Below, piece after piece: positions 1,493 through 61,738 of a DNA stretch of 64,000 nucleotides. Below the pieces are notes generated by a model, which was given only the letters and a program-made list of their open reading frames with translations, was not told where the DNA came from and searched no databases. The position numbers and the translations under genes are program-made. The DNA comes from an uncultured Planctomycetia bacterium (lineage in GTDB: Bacteria; Omnitrophota; Gorgyraeia; JABMRG01). Numbering within the stretch: position 1 is the first letter of the stretch; each line of letters starts with the position of its first letter. The DNA is taken from positions 52,528 through 116,527 of the forward strand of contig CAZWMG010000004.1 of the NCBI GenBank assembly GCA_964634945.1, in the 5' to 3' direction.

Positions 1493-3265
1493 TTATACGC
1501 GAAACAGGTTCTTCAGCCCCTCCTTATGCAAGATCTTGAGAGCTTGACGCACATGCTTCTTGTTGCGGGGATCCTTGTATTGTAAGAGCGCCCTTTGCAT
1601 CGCCCTTTCTCCCTGGGTTTTGGCCACATATATTTTTTTTCCTGTGTACGGATCCTTCTCTGTATAGTACATGGAACCTGATGTCGTCATGGGCAAAGGA
1701 ATGTAATCCTGTACCTGTTCCGGGTGAATGTGGTTTTTCGCGAGGTAGACTGCCAATTCAAGGGCATCACACAAGCGTGCGCCGGGGTGCGCTGTTATAA
1801 AATAATTTACTAGGTACTGCCTTTTGCCGGCTCTTTTACTAGCAGCCTCAAACCTGCTGATAAGCCTTGGATATTTATCAAACGCGGGTTTATTCATCAG
1901 CTTTAGCACAGGCGCGCTACAATGCTCGGGAGCAACTTTTAGTTGCCCGCTTACGTGAGATGCGCACAATTCATCCAGATATGCGTCTGAATAGTGGTCT
2001 ATTAATAGGTCATACCGCACCCCGCTACCAACAAATACATGTTGTACTCTGGGAACCTTCTTAAGCTCCTTCCAAAGCCGGATCGAATGTTCATAGCCCA
2101 GCTTCAGGTTCTTGCATTTTTCCGGCACAAGACACTGCTTATCGCGGCACGCGCCTGTTTTTTCCCACAAAGCGCAGGTTGCCATATACAGGTTTGCCGT
2201 TGGGCCACCAATATCTGTGACTGTCCCATGAAATGTTTTTTCTTTTGCGATCACTGATATCTCCTTTGCAATAGAGCGCGTGCTGCGACTTTGCACAATC
2301 CTACCCTGATGCAGGCCTAAGGAGCAAAAGCTGCATCCACCTGCGCACCCGCGGTGAGATGTGATCGAATGCTGCACAGTCGCGAACCCCGGAACCCCGC
2401 CATCTTTATCATACACGGTGTGCCAAGCGCGCATATATGGCAGGGCGTATATTCCATCTATCTCACTTGCTGTAAGCGGGGAAGCGGGGGGTTTCTGAAC
2501 AAGAAATCTATCGCCACATTGCTGGACAACTGCCTTACCTGAAAGCGGGTCTGATTCAGAGCATATAATCTTAAACGCTGCGTTAAACGCGTTCTTATCT
2601 TTTGCCATGCTCTCGAAAGAAGGGGACAAGACATAATCCTTAACCCCATCGAGCGTTTTTGCCACAACCACTGTACCGTTAATGTTGCTCAGATCAGGGG
2701 CGCCGATTGATTGTTTGAAGCGAGAAGCTATCTCTATAACTTGTTTCTCCCCCATGCCATAAACCAGAATATCAGCCTTTGCGTCCACTAAGAGCGAGCG
2801 CCTTACCTTGTTTGACCAGTAATCATAATGCGCGAGCCTGCGCATGCTTGCCTCTATGCCGCCTAAAACAATCGGCACGCCCTTAAATGCCTGTTTCAAT
2901 TTATTCGTATATATAATGCTTGCTCTTTCAGGCCTAAGAAACGCTTGCCCTCCTGGGGAATAATCATCTACATTGCGGATTTTCTTATTCGCGGTGTAGC
3001 GCGCGAGCATGGAATCAATATTACCTGCTGTAACCCCGAAAAAAAGCCTTGGCCTGCCCAGTATCTTAAAATCATCGAGGGTATGCCAATCCGGTTGAGC
3101 GATAATGCCCACTTTGAAGCCTGCGCCTTCTAATACCCTGCCTATAAGCGCGGCACCGTACGATGGGTGATCGACATACGCGTCTCCTGTGACCAACACT
3201 ATGTCCAGGCTGGACCAGCCACGTCTTGTCATATCCTTTTTTGATATCGGGAGAAAATCATTCAT
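1493..3265 (-). CDS. ygiQ: YgiQ-family radical SAM protein (UPF0313)
   Basis: 590 aa. The N-terminus WSSLDIVLVTGDAYVDHPSYGAALIGRVLEGAGFKVGIIAQPDW matches the conserved YgiQ N-terminal domain. A CxxxCxxC-type cluster (GCAGGCSFCS) is present. Confidence 0.8.
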   Translation of the reverse strand: MNDFLPISKKDMTRRGWSSLDIVLVTGDAYVDHPSYGAALIGRVLEGAGFKVGIIAQPDWHTLDDFKILGRPRLFFGVTAGNIDSMLARYTANKKIRNVDDYSPGGQAFLRPERASIIYTNKLKQAFKGVPIVLGGIEASMRRLAHYDYWSNKVRRSLLVDAKADILVYGMGEKQVIEIASRFKQSIGAPDLSNINGTVVVAKTLDGVKDYVLSPSFESMAKDKNAFNAAFKIICSESDPLSGKAVVQQCGDRFLVQKPPASPLTASEIDGIYALPYMRAWHTVYDKDGGVPGFATVQHSITSHRGCAGGCSFCSLGLHQGRIVQSRSTRSIAKEISVIAKEKTFHGTVTDIGGPTANLYMATCALWEKTGACRDKQCLVPEKCKNLKLGYEHSIRLWKELKKVPRVQHVFVGSGVRYDLLIDHYSDAYLDELCASHVSGQLKVAPEHCSAPVLKLMNKPAFDKYPRLISRFEAASKRAGKRQYLVNYFITAHPGARLCDALELAVYLAKNHIHPEQVQDYIPLPMTTSGSMYYTEKDPYTGKKIYVAKTQGERAMQRALLQYKDPRNKKHVRQALKILHKEGLKNLFRV

Positions 3266-3396
3266 ATTCTATGCGAAAGTTTGTTGGTTGCGCTTTCCAA
3301 GTCCATTATAACATTTAACTTGGGGGAGAGCCATAACTCTTTAACTAAAGAACATAAAAGACATACCAAAAAAATCTGTTTTAGGACATAAAAAAA

Positions 3397-16428: not shown

Positions 16429-16458
16429 AATAGATACTAGGTGCAAAGGAAAAAAAGC

Positions 16459-16514
16459 ATAAAGTATAAAGTATAAAGTATAAAGGATAAAGGATAAAGG
16501 ATAAAGGATAAAGG
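16459..16514 (+). repeat. Tandem heptanucleotide array: (ATAAAGT)x3 then (ATAAAGG)x5
   Basis: Seen directly in the 5' leader of ndk. Confidence 0.9.
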
Positions 16515-16607
16515 TATATGTCTTGATATGGAATAAACAATAGTCCGCAACTTACAACTTAATCGTTACAACTAAACACGAATATAACTTATTACAAAAG
16601 GCAAATA

Positions 16608-20593: not shown

Positions 20594-20670
20594 GGGCGGT
20601 TGGCGCAGTTGGTTAGCGCGTTTGCTTGACATGCAAAAGGCCGGAGGTTCAAATCCTCTACCGCCCACCA
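20594..20670 (+). tRNA. tRNA-Val (GAC)
   Basis: Acceptor GGGCGGT/ACCGCCC, D-arm GCGCAGTTGGTTAGCGC, anticodon loop TTGACAT, CCA encoded. Confidence 0.7.
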
Positions 20671-20791
20671 TGCACCACTCACTTTGCTTATATGGTGCAT
20701 GCCCTGAACCCGAACTGCGAAGCAGTGAGTGGTTTAGGGCAAGTCACGATTCCCGGGTGCTGTTACGAAGGAATTACAAAAGGTCACAAAA

Positions 20792-21519: not shown

Positions 21520-21608
21520 GCCGGGATGGCGGAATTGGCAGACGCCTTGGACTTAAAATCCAATGGGCAGTAATGCCCGTGCCGGTTCAAGTCCGGCTCC
21601 CGGCACCA
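21520..21608 (+). tRNA. tRNA-Leu (TAA), type II with a long variable arm
   Basis: Acceptor GCCGGGA/TCCCGGC, anticodon loop CTTAAAA, variable stem GGGCA/TGCCC, T-arm GCCGGTTCAAGTCCGGC, CCA. Confidence 0.8.
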
Positions 21609-21678
21609 TGCACCACTCGAAAAAACCATAAGGTTGTTTCTCGGATGCATGGCAGGCCACAATTCACAGGAGATAATT

Positions 21679-24348: not shown

Positions 24349-24457
24349 GTAATTGCTACCCCCGCTGTTTCGCTTTGCGAAACAAAGCGACAGGGGTTAA
24401 TTCATCCCTCTTCTTGCTTGCGCAAGAAAGCAGAGGGGCTCATTAAGGAGACAAATC
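24349..24457 (+). promoter_or_regulatory. Structured leader: hairpin-1 (ends GGGG), TTAATTC, hairpin-2 (CCCTCTTCTTGC..GCAAGAAAGCAGAGGG), then SD AAGGAG. Duplicated upstream of the COG1900 gene (40145..40230).
   Basis: About 60 nt are nearly identical at the two loci. A third variant lies upstream of trkH. Confidence 0.5.
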
Positions 24458-30390: not shown

Positions 30391-30727
30391 TATCTTGATT
30401 TCATACAAAAATATTGATATAGTAAAAGTGTCCCTGCTGTGTGCGTGGCGCTTTGATGCAACTTTGAGCCAACACCTTTATACCGGGAGCCCGACGTAAC
30501 AAGAGATAATGGCATGCTCTTGATAGCAAAGAGAAGCCTGAATGCTTGGACAGGGCACCCACCTAAATATAAGGGTTCAAAGTCCATCAGTTGCCCGGCA
30601 CGTGCGGGGATTGTTTTTCGTATTGCGTCGTGCGCCTGCCTGCCGGTAGGCAGGTATATCGTATCGCGTGACAATATTAACATAAAATATAAACGCAATA
30701 CGAGTCACTAGTAAACAAAATCATGCC

Positions 30728-32098: not shown

Positions 32099-32146
32099 CA
32101 AGACCGGTTCTCAAGCACAGGTGGTTGTGCTTGAGAACCGGTCTTG
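32099..32146. repeat. 48-nt perfect palindrome (REP-like): CAAGACCGGTTCTCAAGCACA-ggtggt-TGTGCTTGAGAACCGGTCTTG
   Basis: 20-21 bp stem. A near-identical copy (46/48) in inverted orientation lies at 61691..61738. Confidence 0.9.
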
Positions 32147-40144: not shown

Positions 40145-40230
40145 TAAAAATCCCTCGCTATTGCTTGGGATTAATTCGCCCCTCTTCTTGCTTTTGCAAG
40201 AAAGCAGAGGGGCTCATTAAGGAGACGATA
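40145..40230 (+). promoter_or_regulatory. Second copy of the hairpin-TTAATTC-hairpin-SD leader, upstream of the COG1900 gene
   Basis: TTAATTCGCCCCTCTTCTTGCTTTTGCAAGAAAGCAGAGGGGCTCATTAAGGAGAC is nearly identical to 24399..24452. Confidence 0.5.
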
Positions 40231-47753: not shown

Positions 47754-47808
47754 AAAGGCGCATGTGATAAGGCACAAGGAAAAAGGATAAAGGTTAAAGG
47801 TTAAAAAA

Positions 47809-52631: not shown

Positions 52632-53190
52632 GAGCATGAAAGACGAGAGAATAATATGCGCCGGCTTTGGCGGCCAAGGCATAATGATACTGGGTAAGTT
52701 GATTGCCTACAGCGTAATGGAAAGAAACTACAATGTTACATGGATGCCGTCATATGGCGCGGAGGTAAGGGGTGGTACCGCTCATTGCATGGTTATTGTC
52801 TCGGATAAAGAGATCGCCTCGCCAATAACTTCTTATTGCGATACGGCCATTATATTGAATAACCCATCCATGGATAAGTTCCGCTCAATAATTAGCCCGC
52901 GTTCGATCCAAACAGGTAGGCGGGGCCTTATTATACTTAATAGTTCGCTTGTTACTAAAGAGGTCAAGAGAAAAGATGTCGATATTCTCAGGATTCCTAT
53001 GACGGAGATCGCGCTTGAGCTCGGGAATGTACGAGCGGCGAATATGGTCGCGCTTGGCGCGTATATGAAGTTAAGAGGATTATTTGTTAAGAAAGATGTT
53101 ATTAGAGGCATAAGGATAGCCTTTTCAGGTAACAAAGATATTATAGATATCAATATAAGGGCATTGGATAGAGGTGAGGCCCTGGCATGA
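52621..53190 (+). CDS. 2-oxoacid:ferredoxin oxidoreductase gamma subunit
   Basis: IICAGFGGQGI motif. Translationally coupled to beta. Confidence 0.75.
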   Translation: MKVKSMKDERIICAGFGGQGIMILGKLIAYSVMERNYNVTWMPSYGAEVRGGTAHCMVIVSDKEIASPITSYCDTAIILNNPSMDKFRSIISPRSIQTGRRGLIILNSSLVTKEVKRKDVDILRIPMTEIALELGNVRAANMVALGAYMKLRGLFVKKDVIRGIRIAFSGNKDIIDINIRALDRGEALA

Positions 53191-54536
53191 ATAATAAAAC
53201 GCAGATAGAAAAAGGCAAACAAGTCAATCTCAATAATGGTGTAAGAGTCCGCTTTGCCCCCTCACCCACAGGTTCCCTGCATATAGGCAGCGCTAGAACA
53301 GCGCTGTTTAATTGGCTGTATGCCAGGAATCAAGGTGGCGAGTTCATATTACGTATAGAGGATACGGATAAAGAGCGTTCCGACGAACAACATATAGATG
53401 AGATACTATCGAGCCTGAAATGGCTGGGCTTAAATTGGGATGGCGAGGTATTGTATCAAAGCAAAAGATTTGATATCTATAAGCAATATGCTGAAGAGCT
53501 TGTAGCCCAGGAAAAGGCTTATTATGAAGAGTCAGATAAAGGCAGGGCCATCAAATTAAAGGTTATAAAGGATGAGCCCATTATCTTTTATGACGCGGTC
53601 CATGACAAGATAGAGGTCAACTCAAATACTGTCGATGACTTTGTAATCATAAAATCAGATGGTTCCCCAACATATAATTTTGCATGCGTAGTAGATGACG
53701 CGGATATGAATATAACGCATATAATAAGAGGCGATGACCACATTACAAATACCTCGAAACAGCTGATCATATATCAGGCCTTAGGCAAAAAGCCGCCGAA
53801 ATTCGCGCACATACCATTGATTCTTGGCGAGGATAAGTCGCGCATGTCAAAGCGACACGGCGCTACATCGATACAAGAGTACAAAACAAGAGGGTATTTT
53901 TCCAAGGCGCTTGTGAACTTTTTATCGCTTATGGGCTGGTCGCCAAAAGATGACAGAGAAAAGATGAGCCTTGACCAGATAGTAAAGCTGTTTTCTTTAA
54001 AGGCGATCGTTAAGACGGGCGCCGTGTTTAATATACAGAAACTTAACTGGCTAAATGGAGAATATATAAGAGAAGCGCCTATCAGTGAACTTACGGATTT
54101 TGTGGCAGCGCACCTGACAGAGAAAGGCATAATCAAAGAAGATTGTGATAGACAATGGCTCGAGGCTGTTGTAAAATCTTTCCAAACACGCTTCTGTAAT
54201 ATAGATGATTTTATCGAACGGTCAGGGTTTTTGTTCAGTGAGGATATTGATATAGACCAGTCGATTGTTAGCGAGCACCTAAGCAATGAAAAGACGCGTA
54301 ATTTGCTCTTAAAATTAAAACAGAGCCTTGAAACGCTAGATCCGTTTACAGTAGAGTCGATAGAGCAGGCAGTACGTTCTTTAGCAGCTGTGGAAGAAGT
54401 TAAGGCAGCGGATATAATACATCCGGCACGTGCGGCATTGACAGGCAGAACAGCCGCACCGGGAATATTTGACGTAATACACCTTATTGGAAAAGAGCGA
54501 GCAATTAAACGCTTAGATAAGGCTATAAAGCATTAA
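53187..54536 (+). CDS. gltX: Glutamyl-tRNA synthetase
   Basis: HIGSART (HIGH), KMSKR (KMSKS). Confidence 0.9.
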   Translation: MNNKTQIEKGKQVNLNNGVRVRFAPSPTGSLHIGSARTALFNWLYARNQGGEFILRIEDTDKERSDEQHIDEILSSLKWLGLNWDGEVLYQSKRFDIYKQYAEELVAQEKAYYEESDKGRAIKLKVIKDEPIIFYDAVHDKIEVNSNTVDDFVIIKSDGSPTYNFACVVDDADMNITHIIRGDDHITNTSKQLIIYQALGKKPPKFAHIPLILGEDKSRMSKRHGATSIQEYKTRGYFSKALVNFLSLMGWSPKDDREKMSLDQIVKLFSLKAIVKTGAVFNIQKLNWLNGEYIREAPISELTDFVAAHLTEKGIIKEDCDRQWLEAVVKSFQTRFCNIDDFIERSGFLFSEDIDIDQSIVSEHLSNEKTRNLLLKLKQSLETLDPFTVESIEQAVRSLAAVEEVKAADIIHPARAALTGRTAAPGIFDVIHLIGKERAIKRLDKAIKH

Positions 54537-54549
54537 CACAGTTAATCGC

Positions 54550-54717
54550 TGCCCCGTGGTATAATTTTTTAACCATGCATCGTGATTGCAGAGCAATCTC
54601 TGATGCATGGGGCAACACGGCTGATTCTGCAGTGAACCAGAGCCCCGAAGGGGCACGGTACACTGCAGCAGTAAACCGTGTTTTGTGTAACAAAACTCTG
54701 GTTTGCTGCTGGTTCAG
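54550..54717 (+). pseudogene. Degenerate partial copy of the 5' half of tRNA-Gln. Two hairpin-rich insertions interrupt it. The first 24 nt, including a TGgTATAAT, are duplicated from the intact gene.
   Basis: TTAATCGCTGCCCCGTGGTATAAT matches 54748..54771. GGCAACACGGCTGATTCTG and CTGGTTCAG match internal tRNA segments. There is no T-arm or acceptor 3' half. Confidence 0.6.
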
Positions 54718-54755
54718 TATAATATTTATGAAAGAAAAGTTCTCTGATTAATCGC

Positions 54756-54830
54756 TGCCCCGTAGTATAATTGGCAACACGGCTGATTCTGGTTCAGCTA
54801 TTCTTGGTTCGAGTCCAAGCGGGGCAGCCA
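54756..54830 (+). tRNA. tRNA-Gln (CTG)
   Basis: Acceptor TGCCCCG/CGGGGCA, anticodon stem GCTGA/TCAGC with loop TTCTGGT, T-arm CTTGGTTCGAGTCCAAG, CCA. One A-C mismatch in the D-stem. Confidence 0.7.
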
Positions 54831-54892
54831 TCAGCCTTCGCGCTTTTAACGCGCAGGTTACTTATGCGCTACGGCTGATTGGCTAGCATATT

Positions 54893-55144
54893 ATGTATTA
54901 CACCTATATTCTTAGAAGCAAGAAAGATAATAGTAAATTCTATATTGGATATACAGCTAATTTAGAGAAGCGGTTAAAGGAGCATAACGAAAGTAGAATG
55001 TTGTATACTAAGCGTCATGCTCCTTGGTATGTAGAGACATACGTATCATTCACTAATCAGCAGCTAGCCAAGCAGTTTGAACAATATCTCAAAAGTGGTT
55101 CTGGCAAAACATTTCTCAAGCGAAGGCTGACAAGTCAGCCGTAG
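54893..55144 (+). CDS. Standalone GIY-YIG nuclease-domain protein (YhbQ/UPF0213-like), 83 aa
   Basis: YYTYIL and FYIGYT motifs, plus conserved R and E (KEHN). Confidence 0.75.
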   Translation: MYYTYILRSKKDNSKFYIGYTANLEKRLKEHNESRMLYTKRHAPWYVETYVSFTNQQLAKQFEQYLKSGSGKTFLKRRLTSQP

Positions 55145-55246
55145 CTGCCAAGTTATATTGCCTGAGAAAATGCGAAGGCTGATGGCACATGGATAAGGCC
55201 GGCGAAGCCTGGACACGATATAGCCTGTTGCAAAGGCGAAGCTGTG

Positions 55247-55262
55247 CCAAGCGGGGCAGCCA
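55247..55262 (+). repeat. 16-bp direct repeat (CCAAGCGGGGCAGCCA) identical to the 3' end of tRNA-Gln (54815..54830). Together they bracket the GIY-YIG cassette.
   Basis: Exact match seen in sequence. Confidence 0.9.
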
Positions 55263-57254: not shown

Positions 57255-58001
57255 AAATAGGGACAGCGCCCATTTAAATTTTTTCTTGCTTATGGGCGAT
57301 TCCTGTAATATTATATATTCATGCCAAGAACCGCAAGAATAGTTTTCGAAGAATATCCGCACCATATCACTCAAAAAGGAAATTACGGGCAGAAGGTATT
57401 TACTAAAAATTCCGAATACAGTATTTACCTCGAATGGCTAAATGAATATGCTATCAAGTATAAATTAAGCATACTTGCATATTGCCTTATGCCCAACCAT
57501 GTTCATTTTGCTGCTATTCCAAATAAGTCCGATTCTCTATCCAAGACTTTTAATACATGTCATATGCGTTATGCGCAGTATTTTAACAAACGCAATAGAA
57601 TTTCAGGCCACTTGTGGAAAGGCAGATTTTATTCCGCTGTTTTAGATGATAATCATTTATATTACGTTGTAAGATACATAGAAAATAACCCGGTGCGAGC
57701 CAAGCTTGTAAAAAGAGCGGGGGATTGGAAGTGGTCGAGTGCGAATACCCATTTAAATGGCGCAAAAAGTATTTTGCATCTGGGCAACATAAGGAAATAT
57801 ATTGATAATATAGACTGGGCAGACTATCTGCAAAAAAGAGAAGATGACGCAATTGTCAAAACCATAAGAGATACGACACTGAGCGGGAAGCCCATGGGAA
57901 GTGATTCGTTTATAGAAAAGCTAGAAAAACTATCAGGAAAAAGTTTAAGGACATTACCGCGCGGCAGGCCTCGGCAAAAATAAATGGGCGCTGTCCCTAT
58001 T
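57255..58001 (+). mobile_element. IS200/IS605-type Y1 (REP-associated tyrosine transposase-like) unit. 21-nt imperfect-palindromic ends in inverted orientation (57255..57275 and 57981..58001) flank the transposase gene.
   Basis: AAATAGGGACAGCGCCCATTT on the left is the exact reverse complement of AAATGGGCGCTGTCCCTATTT on the right. Confidence 0.7.
57321..57983 (+). CDS. Y1 HUH transposase (IS200-like / RAYT family)
   Basis: HUH motif MPNHVHF. Catalytic Tyr region YIENNPVRAKLV. 220 aa. No tnpB partner. Confidence 0.8.
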   Translation: MPRTARIVFEEYPHHITQKGNYGQKVFTKNSEYSIYLEWLNEYAIKYKLSILAYCLMPNHVHFAAIPNKSDSLSKTFNTCHMRYAQYFNKRNRISGHLWKGRFYSAVLDDNHLYYVVRYIENNPVRAKLVKRAGDWKWSSANTHLNGAKSILHLGNIRKYIDNIDWADYLQKREDDAIVKTIRDTTLSGKPMGSDSFIEKLEKLSGKSLRTLPRGRPRQK

Positions 58002-61690: not shown

Positions 61691-61738
61691 CAAGACCGGT
61701 TCTCAAGCACAACCACCTGTGCTCAAGAACCGGTCTTG
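61691..61738. repeat. Second copy of the 48-nt REP-like palindrome, inverted relative to 32099..32146, with 2 substitutions
   Basis: CAAGACCGGTTCTCAAGCACAACCACCTGTGCTCAAGAACCGGTCTTG. Confidence 0.9.

Follow-up and report, generated by a model that had tools for sequence, protein, structure and literature searches.

Introduction

In fungal mitochondria, elements known as mORFs carry a replacement end for the gene that they enter, as seen in atp6 of Allomyces macrogynus and in atp6, atp9, cox2 and nad3 of Glomus (PMC3630166). Here we describe an arrangement of a related kind at a bacterial tRNA gene. The locus lies in a stretch of 64,000 nucleotides (nt), hereafter the window, from an uncultured bacterium of the Omnitrophota (assembly GCA_964634945.1, contig CAZWMG010000004.1, positions 52,528 to 116,527), in which a block at positions 54542-54747 separates the glutamyl-tRNA synthetase gene gltX from an intact tRNA-Gln(CTG) gene. 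An earlier description made from the DNA letters alone (the sequence-only reading) had noted that this tRNA gene is preceded by a displaced, insert-bearing copy of its own 5' half, and had offered several origins for it. We argue that the block is probably a remnant, devoid of an open reading frame (ORF), of a small selfish cassette of the homing type that was inserted in the anticodon loop of the tRNA gene.

Similar to the mORFs, their nearest documented counterparts, the cassettes considered here combine an endonuclease gene (also of the GIY-YIG type in atp9) with part of the target gene, the imported part completing the gene and the native part remaining as a dead duplicate, and they are present or absent among close relatives and decay over time (PMC3630166). 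The mORFs, however, occupy protein genes of organelles, replace the 3' or C-terminal end with a foreign one and encode full-size endonucleases, whereas the present cassettes are found at a tRNA gene in a bacterial host, the upstream one replaces the 5' half together with its leader, and a minimal nuclease domain of about 84 amino acids (aa) is accompanied by conserved hairpin modules. A further parallel is provided by T4-like bacteriophages, in which SegB is a free-standing GIY-YIG homing enzyme encoded in a tRNA gene cluster and the Seg proteins promote their own inheritance by cutting the homologous cassette-free locus (PMC2330249); the two systems have in common intron-less GIY-YIG genes among or beside tRNA genes. 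With the group I introns of bacterial tRNA genes, some of which encode homing endonucleases, the block shares the anticodon-loop site, a structured character and a possible association with a GIY-YIG ORF, but it has neither a ribozyme core nor splicing, the tRNA being saved instead by duplication of half the gene at the DNA level. The Seg proteins, for their part, are phage-borne, are about 200 aa or more in length, have DNA-binding domains and lie between genes without duplication of gene segments. Finally, the short hairpins of the block (44 and 79 nt), with their two orientations, variable stems and conserved motifs, recall miniature inverted-repeat transposable elements (MITEs) and repetitive extragenic palindromic (REP) elements, and the double-hairpin elements of chytrid mitochondria are likewise small palindromic insertion elements. 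In contrast with MITEs and REP elements, no dispersed copies of the hairpins were found in 766 kb, and they were seen only inside displaced tRNA-Gln fragments beside GIY-YIG cassettes. In the literature we found no report that endonuclease elements with a spare gene end occur in bacteria, enter tRNA genes or bring the 5' half of a gene.

Results

The tRNA-Gln gene is preceded by a displaced copy of its 5' half

Upstream of the intact tRNA-Gln(CTG) gene and downstream of gltX, a repeat finder located a displaced leader and tRNA nt 1-42, interrupted by two hairpin inserts (Table 1). The duplicated target gene that flanks the block comprises direct repeats of 25, 19 and 9 nt, which together represent the leader and tRNA nt 1-42: TTAATCGCTGCCCCGTRGTATAATT at 54542-54566 and 54748-54772 (24 of 25 nt identical), GGCAACACGGCTGATTCTG at 54611-54629 and 54773-54791 (19 of 19) and CTGGTTCAG at 54709-54717 and 54789-54797. 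All the repeats listed in the sequence-only reading are therefore present, although the first, placed there at 54543 and 54748, was started one base late; it begins at 54542 and extends over 25 nt with one mismatch. As tRNA nt 34-42 are repeated after nt 18-36, CTG flanks insert 2 on both sides.

Only 5 nt lie between the gltX stop codon and the displaced leader, and 54542-54566 adjoins gltX in just the way seen in L001, L077 and L085, relatives that have no cassette. The leader, TTAATCGC, is identical in the two window copies, and the two tRNA 5' copies differ only at tRNA position 9, which is G in the displaced copy, as in most relatives, and A in the functional copy, as in L001/L073; in another relative, L086, this allele pattern is reversed. 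A T-arm and a 3' acceptor strand are absent from the upstream copy, as had been stated previously, and ARAGORN calls the downstream tRNA-Gln(CTG) at 54756-54830 only. Also absent from 54542-54747 is a GIY-YIG ORF, of which a possible relic of about 30 nt is all that is found. The perfect extended -10 element that had been read in the duplicated segment does not stand as a promoter. The motif, TGGTATAAT, occurs in the upstream copy only (54557-54565), the functional copy of the window reading TAGTATAAT; since most relatives have TGGTATAAT within their working tRNA, it represents the usual D-arm of the G9 allele rather than a promoter that has evolved.

The block is no assembly artefact, because independent assemblies agree. 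Three Logan assemblies of the same species (L100, L101 and L102; overall identity 99.3-99.8%) extend across it and agree with the window at every position of 54500-54900, and a fourth, L084, confirms the left junction. The block is invariant across strains that differ by 0.2-0.7% elsewhere.

In most relatives, those whose GltX is 77-92% identical (L001/L073, L077-L080, L082, L083, L085 and L089), the gltX stop codon is followed by a leader of about 13 nt and a near-identical tRNA-Gln without the block; the window lineage therefore has 206 nt of additional DNA, at 54542-54747. As the exact GltX protein of the window is not on record, a near-identical cluster representative was used as a stand-in. 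Overall, the site is filled in the window, L103, L086, L072/L076 and L087/L088, at differing stages of decay, and empty in at least ten relatives. The order of gltX and tRNA-Gln(CTG) is itself conserved across Omnitrophota-like genomes and beyond (L004, L005, L006, L009, L103-L107 and all close relatives), and the spacing of about 13 nt in the closest relatives points to co-transcription of the synthetase with the tRNA that it probably charges.

A relative carries an intact cassette at the same tRNA position

The comparison that the sequence-only reading had proposed, which showed most close relatives to be without the block, also revealed an intact cassette in L103 (GltX 74% identical). Here, gltX is followed by the native leader and tRNA nt 1-12, a 44-nt hairpin unit, nt 13-36 ending in GATTCTG, a double hairpin, an ORF for an 84-aa GIY-YIG protein, a new leader and an intact tRNA-Gln, the direct repeats being 15 and 24 nt long. 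Past the tRNA, GATTCTG, the double hairpin and the start of the ORF occur a second time, in a copy of 115 nt (95% identical) that extends up to the contig end. The double hairpin of L103 and insert 2 of the window align with a score of 50, against 17.1 +/- 3.4 for shuffled sequences, none of 1000 of which reached that value.

The remaining filled loci display other states. In L072/L076 (GltX about 90%), a 62-nt insert separates the leader and 7 nt of the tRNA from a new leader followed by the tRNA, and a 70-nt alignment relates this insert to the final ~60 nt of the L103 ORF and its leader (score 40, against 15.7 +/- 3.0; 0/1000 shuffles). L087/L088 (GltX 78%) have a spacer homologous to the L072 insert (0/500 shuffles), a degenerate 5' half, another spacer and the tRNA; the displaced 5' half in these genomes is older and degenerate. 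In L086 (GltX 80%), tRNA nt 1-17 are followed by TTCTAACCATGCATCGTGATT, the junction and first 21 nt of which are shared with insert 1 of the window; unrelated sequence of about 150 nt then leads to an intact tRNA.

A trace of the nuclease gene may persist in the window as well. The start of the 30-nt spacer, GTATAATATTTAT, was compared with that of the L103 ORF, ATGTATAATGTATAT, and the peptides encoded at the ORF end are LKETLSS* in L103, LKETLSD in L072 and MKEKFSD* in the window. On these similarities, 54718-54747 is the probable product of internal deletion of a GIY-YIG ORF. Since the block has no ORF and the homologous L103 cassette has one, we treat the block as a decayed remnant and not as an active member. 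A candidate small peptide starting MHRD (window 54575-54751, L086 2191-2313) was rejected, there being no conservation past four residues.

The inserts are copies of one hairpin module

The block is highly structured: its predicted fold has an energy of -84.2 kcal/mol (z = -6.4), and none of 200 shuffled sequences was as structured. The corresponding block of L103 has z = -7.6; the counterparts in L086 and L087 (z = -1.7 and +0.4) show no significant structure. In the minimum-energy fold, insert 2 contributes two adjacent hairpins, B (54627-54668) and C (54666-54711), to which a covariance model of the module, R1, gives matches at 54630-54665(-) and 54669-54708(+). The single outer stem described earlier, for an insert taken to be about 80 nt and found to be 79 nt, does exist, but the two-hairpin fold is preferred; the two are alternatives because B and C represent a single module in opposite orientations. 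The hairpin of insert 1, with arms CCATGCATC and GATGCATGG, was likewise correctly seen, although the insert is 44 nt long and not 45; R1 matches it at 54573-54610 with 45.6 bits.

That the inserts are copies of a single module goes beyond the sequence-only reading, as does the second cassette described below. All eight hairpins (A, B and C of the window; B1, B2, C1, C2 and D of L103) conform to it in one orientation or the other. The outer stem ends in CC and is followed by GUG; next come an inner stem, which varies and bears a triloop, and CUCU, after which GG closes the outer stem. The loops CC-GUG...CUCU-GG are invariant in 8/8 hairpins, the outer stems are 98.8% paired, and 7/12 pairs change on both sides (0/500 shuffles). 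The inner stems, on the other hand, are wholly different (CCCC/GGGG, TTTTTC/GAAAAA, GATCAC/GTGATC, TTTTGT/ACAAAA, ATTTTGC/GCAAAAT and ATTGC/GCAAT). In most modules the 3' arm includes TCTGGTT, which is the anticodon-loop sequence across the insertion point. The solitary D-loop units of the window and L103 are both 44 nt long, consisting of TTYTAA and a 38-nt hairpin in opposite orientations, and they are sited at tRNA positions 17/18 (window, and also L086) and 12/13 (L103). The two copies of hairpin B in L103 (2912-2928 and 3361-3377) have an inverted triloop (TTTTTCAAAGAAAAA vs TTTTTCTTTGAAAAA), as expected from flipping of a palindrome loop.

Outside the tRNA-Gln blocks of the window and L103 the module was not found by regular expression in 766 kb, by R1 in 268 kb or by BLAST, searches for dispersed copies that covered 64 kb of the window genome; nor was a second copy of either insert found elsewhere in the window or in the loci of the relatives. 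In the absence of dispersed copies, a MITE- or REP-like origin was rejected within that coverage, and a 13-nt match to an insert at window 25060, which lies in apparent coding sequence, was taken as chance. Derivation of the inserts from the tRNA itself was also rejected as non-significant, a 9-nt antisense match, TGAACCAGA, being marginal (p ~0.05). Searches of the window and L103 blocks against Rfam 15, at gathering and permissive thresholds (E up to 10 for the window), returned the tRNA as the sole hit, everything else scoring far under the gathering cutoffs, T-box, tRNA-like, ribozyme and sRNA families included.

A second, intact cassette adjoins the 3' end of the tRNA

Immediately 3' of the tRNA CCA lies another GIY-YIG cassette, a unit of about 430 nt with its repeat. 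It has 20-nt terminal inverted repeats (54827-54846 and 55167-55186), holds the tRNA fragment ACGGCTGATT at 54871-54880, and contains an ORF of 83 aa at 54893-55144 (PF01541, E = 8.5e-16). The predicted protein is 44% identical to the 84-aa protein of L103 (E = 2e-11) and matches 'UPF0213 protein BH0048' (PDB 1zg2, E = 4.8e-20), and the L103 protein belongs to the same family (E = 3.6e-13). By these matches and by its size, the predicted product of 54893-55144 is assigned to UPF0213, a family of about 80-100 aa, and consists of a GIY-YIG domain only. The catalytic-type residues Y5, Y17, R27, H31 and E63 are invariant in the GIY-YIG alignment. Minimal proteins of this kind have been described before, as stand-alone prokaryotic Slx1-like proteins consist of a GIY-YIG domain without auxiliary domains (PMC1564403).

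The downstream cassette has a parallel in another Omnitrophota genome, L110, where the same unit encodes a protein that is 79% identical. The direct repeats of the L110 unit are 17 nt long and correspond to the tRNA-Gln 3' end, its inverted repeats measure 15 nt, and it is inserted in an isolated tRNA 3' fragment. GIY-YIG genes also lie 3' of tRNA-Gln in L104-L106, and two loci encoding the family were found in viral contigs, neither with a tRNA. In L104/L106 (2926-3070), a direct duplication of about 75 nt 3' of tRNA-Gln, which includes a degenerate tRNA 3' end, GGGCCACCA, and a AAAATTTTCTTCGAAAATTTT hairpin, precedes another small GIY-YIG gene.

Table 1 Arrangement of the gltX to tRNA-Gln(CTG) locus in the window
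Feature	Position	Strand	Basis or remark
gltX (glutamyl-tRNA synthetase)	53187-54536	+	ORF; homologues have PF00749 and PF19269
Displaced native leader TTAATCGC and tRNA-Gln nt 1-17, G9 allele; left direct repeat	54542-54566	+	Repeat finder
Insert 1, 44 nt: TTTTAA and 38-nt hairpin (module H, 'C' orientation)	54567-54610	+	Within D-loop, tRNA positions 17/18
Displaced tRNA-Gln nt 18-36 (D-loop to anticodon)	54611-54629	+	19/19 identical to functional copy
Insert 2 ('S'), 79 nt: double hairpin, two inverted copies of module H, after anticodon nt 36	54630-54708	+	Fold and model R1
Displaced tRNA-Gln nt 34-42	54709-54717	+	Repeat finder
30-nt spacer, starting GTATAATATTTAT and ending ATGAAAGAAAAGTTCTCTGATTAA, which encodes MKEKFSD*	54718-54747	+	Probable relic, both ends of lost GIY-YIG ORF
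Second leader copy (54748-54755) and intact tRNA-Gln(CTG) (54756-54830), A9 allele	54748-54830	+	ARAGORN; RF00005, 52.9 bits
Second, intact GIY-YIG cassette, immediately 3' of tRNA CCA	54831-55246	+	Repeats, ORF; parallel in L110
Displaced last 16 nt of tRNA-Gln, CCAAGCGGGGCAGCCA; right direct repeat	55247-55262	+	16/16 identical to 54815-54830

Discussion

The suggestion that the block is a remnant of an element that targeted tRNA-Gln is borne out by the comparative data, which identify the element as a GIY-YIG (UPF0213) cassette that is intact in L103. It is a recombination scar, another of the origins put forward, only in the loose sense that a cassette has lost its ORF. In an intact cassette of the L103 type, the order would be the double hairpin, the gene for the stand-alone nuclease of about 84 aa, a leader and a new copy of nt 1-36 of the tRNA. 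Insertion would shift the host leader and 5' half upstream as a dead fragment, and the imported 5' half would be joined to the host 3' half, keeping the essential tRNA intact. In the window, the nuclease ORF would later have been deleted, leaving the displaced 5' half (G9), the hairpin modules and a remnant of about 30 nt from the two ends of the ORF. Spread would be by homing, in which cassette-free alleles of tRNA-Gln are cut by the nuclease and acquire a copy of the cassette during repair, and the hairpin units of the displaced copy may move together with the cassette. The block is probably dead DNA and would now have no function for the host, save perhaps that of providing transcription signals for the tRNA.

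When the loci are considered together, their intact, decaying and empty states match the cycle of invasion, decay and loss of homing endonucleases, in which the window block would occupy a late stage. The simplest account of the sequences on both sides of the tRNA gene is a cassette family built around a minimal GIY-YIG nuclease and comprising two putative types, one upstream, which would replace the leader and 5' half, and one downstream, bounded by copies of the 3' end.

Several observations weigh against this interpretation. The functional tRNA copy retains the presumed target sequence, and homing therefore needs an unstated mechanism of immunity. The nucleases, at 83-84 aa, have no DNA-binding domain, which leaves site-specific cleavage unexplained. 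It should also be emphasized that the intact upstream type is represented by one example, L103, and that the 30-nt spacer of the window is only marginally similar to the end of the L103 ORF (p ~0.045) and to the relic in L072 (p ~0.02). The window block has no homology to that of L086 past the first 38 nt, and the rest of the L086 block resembles nothing with which it was compared. The essentially perfect hairpin stems of the window, and the invariance of the block among strains, fit a recent origin but fit selection equally. Finally, the anticodon site is preserved on either side of insert 2, CTG being duplicated, which suggests that the double hairpin may insert on its own. The hairpins may act in cis for the cassette; candidate roles of the module are binding or autoregulation of the nuclease, interruption of the direct repeats as a guard against deletion of the cassette, an existence as independent mini-elements, and provision of structure in the mRNA leader.

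It could be argued that no mobile cassette was involved, and that the locus reflects a local accident in which the tRNA 5' half underwent a tandem partial duplication and then received unrelated small palindromic insertions. The lack of an ORF in the block and the identity of the leader TTAATCGC in its two copies are in keeping with this proposal, as are the single-copy status of the inserts in the 64-kb window and the singular sequence of the L086 block. The proposal does not account, however, for the homology of insert 2 to an element of L103 that precedes a GIY-YIG gene and occupies the same position in the tRNA, or for a hairpin module that recurs in these two genomes and was found nowhere else in the sequence searched. 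It is also at odds with the ORF relics at the equivalent site in L072 and L087, and with the difference between the tRNA 5' copies at position 9, where the displaced copy has the allele of most relatives. We consider a local accident of this kind improbable.

The sequence-only reading had also raised the possibility of a tRNA-derived structured small RNA (sRNA). The host would in that case retain a structured RNA, either a tRNA-like leader or an sRNA arising from the TGGTATAAT box, that acts on the processing or expression of tRNA-Gln or gltX. Such a role would suit the strong predicted folds of the window and L103 blocks, the covariation of stems around invariant loop motifs and the constancy of the block among strains; in addition, GGGGCA at 54608-54613 offers a pairing partner for the displaced acceptor strand, and the hairpin 3' arms carry the anticodon-loop motif TCTGGTT. 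DNA palindromes, however, predict covariation equally, the presence of the module in both orientations on the transcribed strand is unusual for a function at the RNA level, and the L086 and L087 counterparts lack significant structure. Since the block is missing from most close relatives, which do without it, and matches no RNA family in Rfam even at permissive thresholds, a host sRNA is unsupported, and we hold a structured RNA kept by the host to be a decidedly unlikely explanation.

Integration and excision of a genomic island or prophage at tRNA-Gln, with attL/attR remnants left as an integrase scar, is a very unlikely source of the block. The tRNA-Gln gene is indeed an integration hot spot in the clade, the sequence 3' of the tRNA differing among relatives, and a large serine recombinase gene adjoins the tRNA 3' end in L086, one that is 74% identical adjoining tRNA-Asn in a viral contig. 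These recombinase junctions, however, are at the tRNA 3' end and not in the 5' half, there is no integrase or recombinase in the 9 kb 3' of the tRNA (54.8-64 kb of the window), and site-specific excision is scarless, whereas the contents of the block match a GIY-YIG cassette. A supporting attP would consist of the leader, tRNA nt 1-17 and TTYTAACCATGCATCG, and scans of viral contigs for the junction of insert 1 and the tRNA 5' end gave chance matches only. A self-splicing or enzymatically spliced intron, or an assembly artefact, is refuted, for although insert 2 occupies the classical site of bacterial group I tRNA introns and repeats can mislead assemblers, ARAGORN with intron options and Rfam gave no intron or ribozyme match (in agreement with the earlier dismissal of an intron), an insert of 79 nt is far under group I size, there is no 3' exon, a complete tRNA follows, and four independent assemblies agree.

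If the block is a cassette relic, as we favour, the single gltX-linked tRNA-Gln of an Omnitrophota-like clade would have been invaded repeatedly by tiny GIY-YIG cassettes, of about 84 aa in coding capacity, that bring a replacement piece of the tRNA. The context of these cassettes would be new information on UPF0213. Both solved structures of the family (PDB 1zg2, BH0048, and 1ywl, EF2693) are named hypothetical proteins only, and in the literature on UPF0213/COG2827/YhbQ we found no report of mobility or of association with tRNA genes. The pattern thus gives a large family a concrete and testable role, the cutting of tRNA-Gln DNA, and it raises the question of how a nuclease without a binding domain finds its site. 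It is tempting to go further and to propose that UPF0213 GIY-YIG nucleases are the engines of unrecognised bacterial selfish cassettes that home into tRNA genes, import a spare half and use the hairpin module, with TCTGGTT in its 3' arm, as a partner in cis for target recognition, self-immunity or autoregulation; this wider proposal is made tentatively, as a possibility that we regard as doubtful at present. For annotators, the locus indicates that partial tRNA copies with hairpin inserts can be the footprints of cassettes and not regulatory RNAs.

Other features of the window and its relatives

In L086, a serine recombinase gene (Zn_ribbon_recom; 2397-3275, minus strand) ends in or beside the 3' end of tRNA-Gln. 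The 74%-identical recombinase of the IMG/VR viral contig L099 (5230-6861) abuts tRNA-Asn(GTT) with a similar junction, CCAGTCGGAT..., and the two represent an integrative element family that uses tRNA 3' ends. The L086 recombinase was rejected as a source of the 5' block of that genome, its element being unrelated and located at the tRNA 3' end.

Elsewhere in the window, a 6S RNA gene lies at 30428-30614 on the plus strand (RF00013, 87.6 bits) and an IS200-like Y1 transposase gene at 57321-57983. There are also two families of long dispersed palindromes, namely near-perfect hairpins of 48 nt at 32099-32146 and 61691-61738 and hairpins of 60 nt, 92% alike, at 24393-24452 and 40167-40226, for which terminators or REP-like elements are possible identities. 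At 16448-16529, the 7-nt motif AAGTATA/AAGGATA is repeated in tandem about 11 times, similar AAGG-rich stretches occurring at 47769 and 50772. Finally, tRNA-Val and tRNA-Leu have a common 3' trailer, CACCATGCACCACTC, directly after the gene (20646-20680 and 21584-21618).

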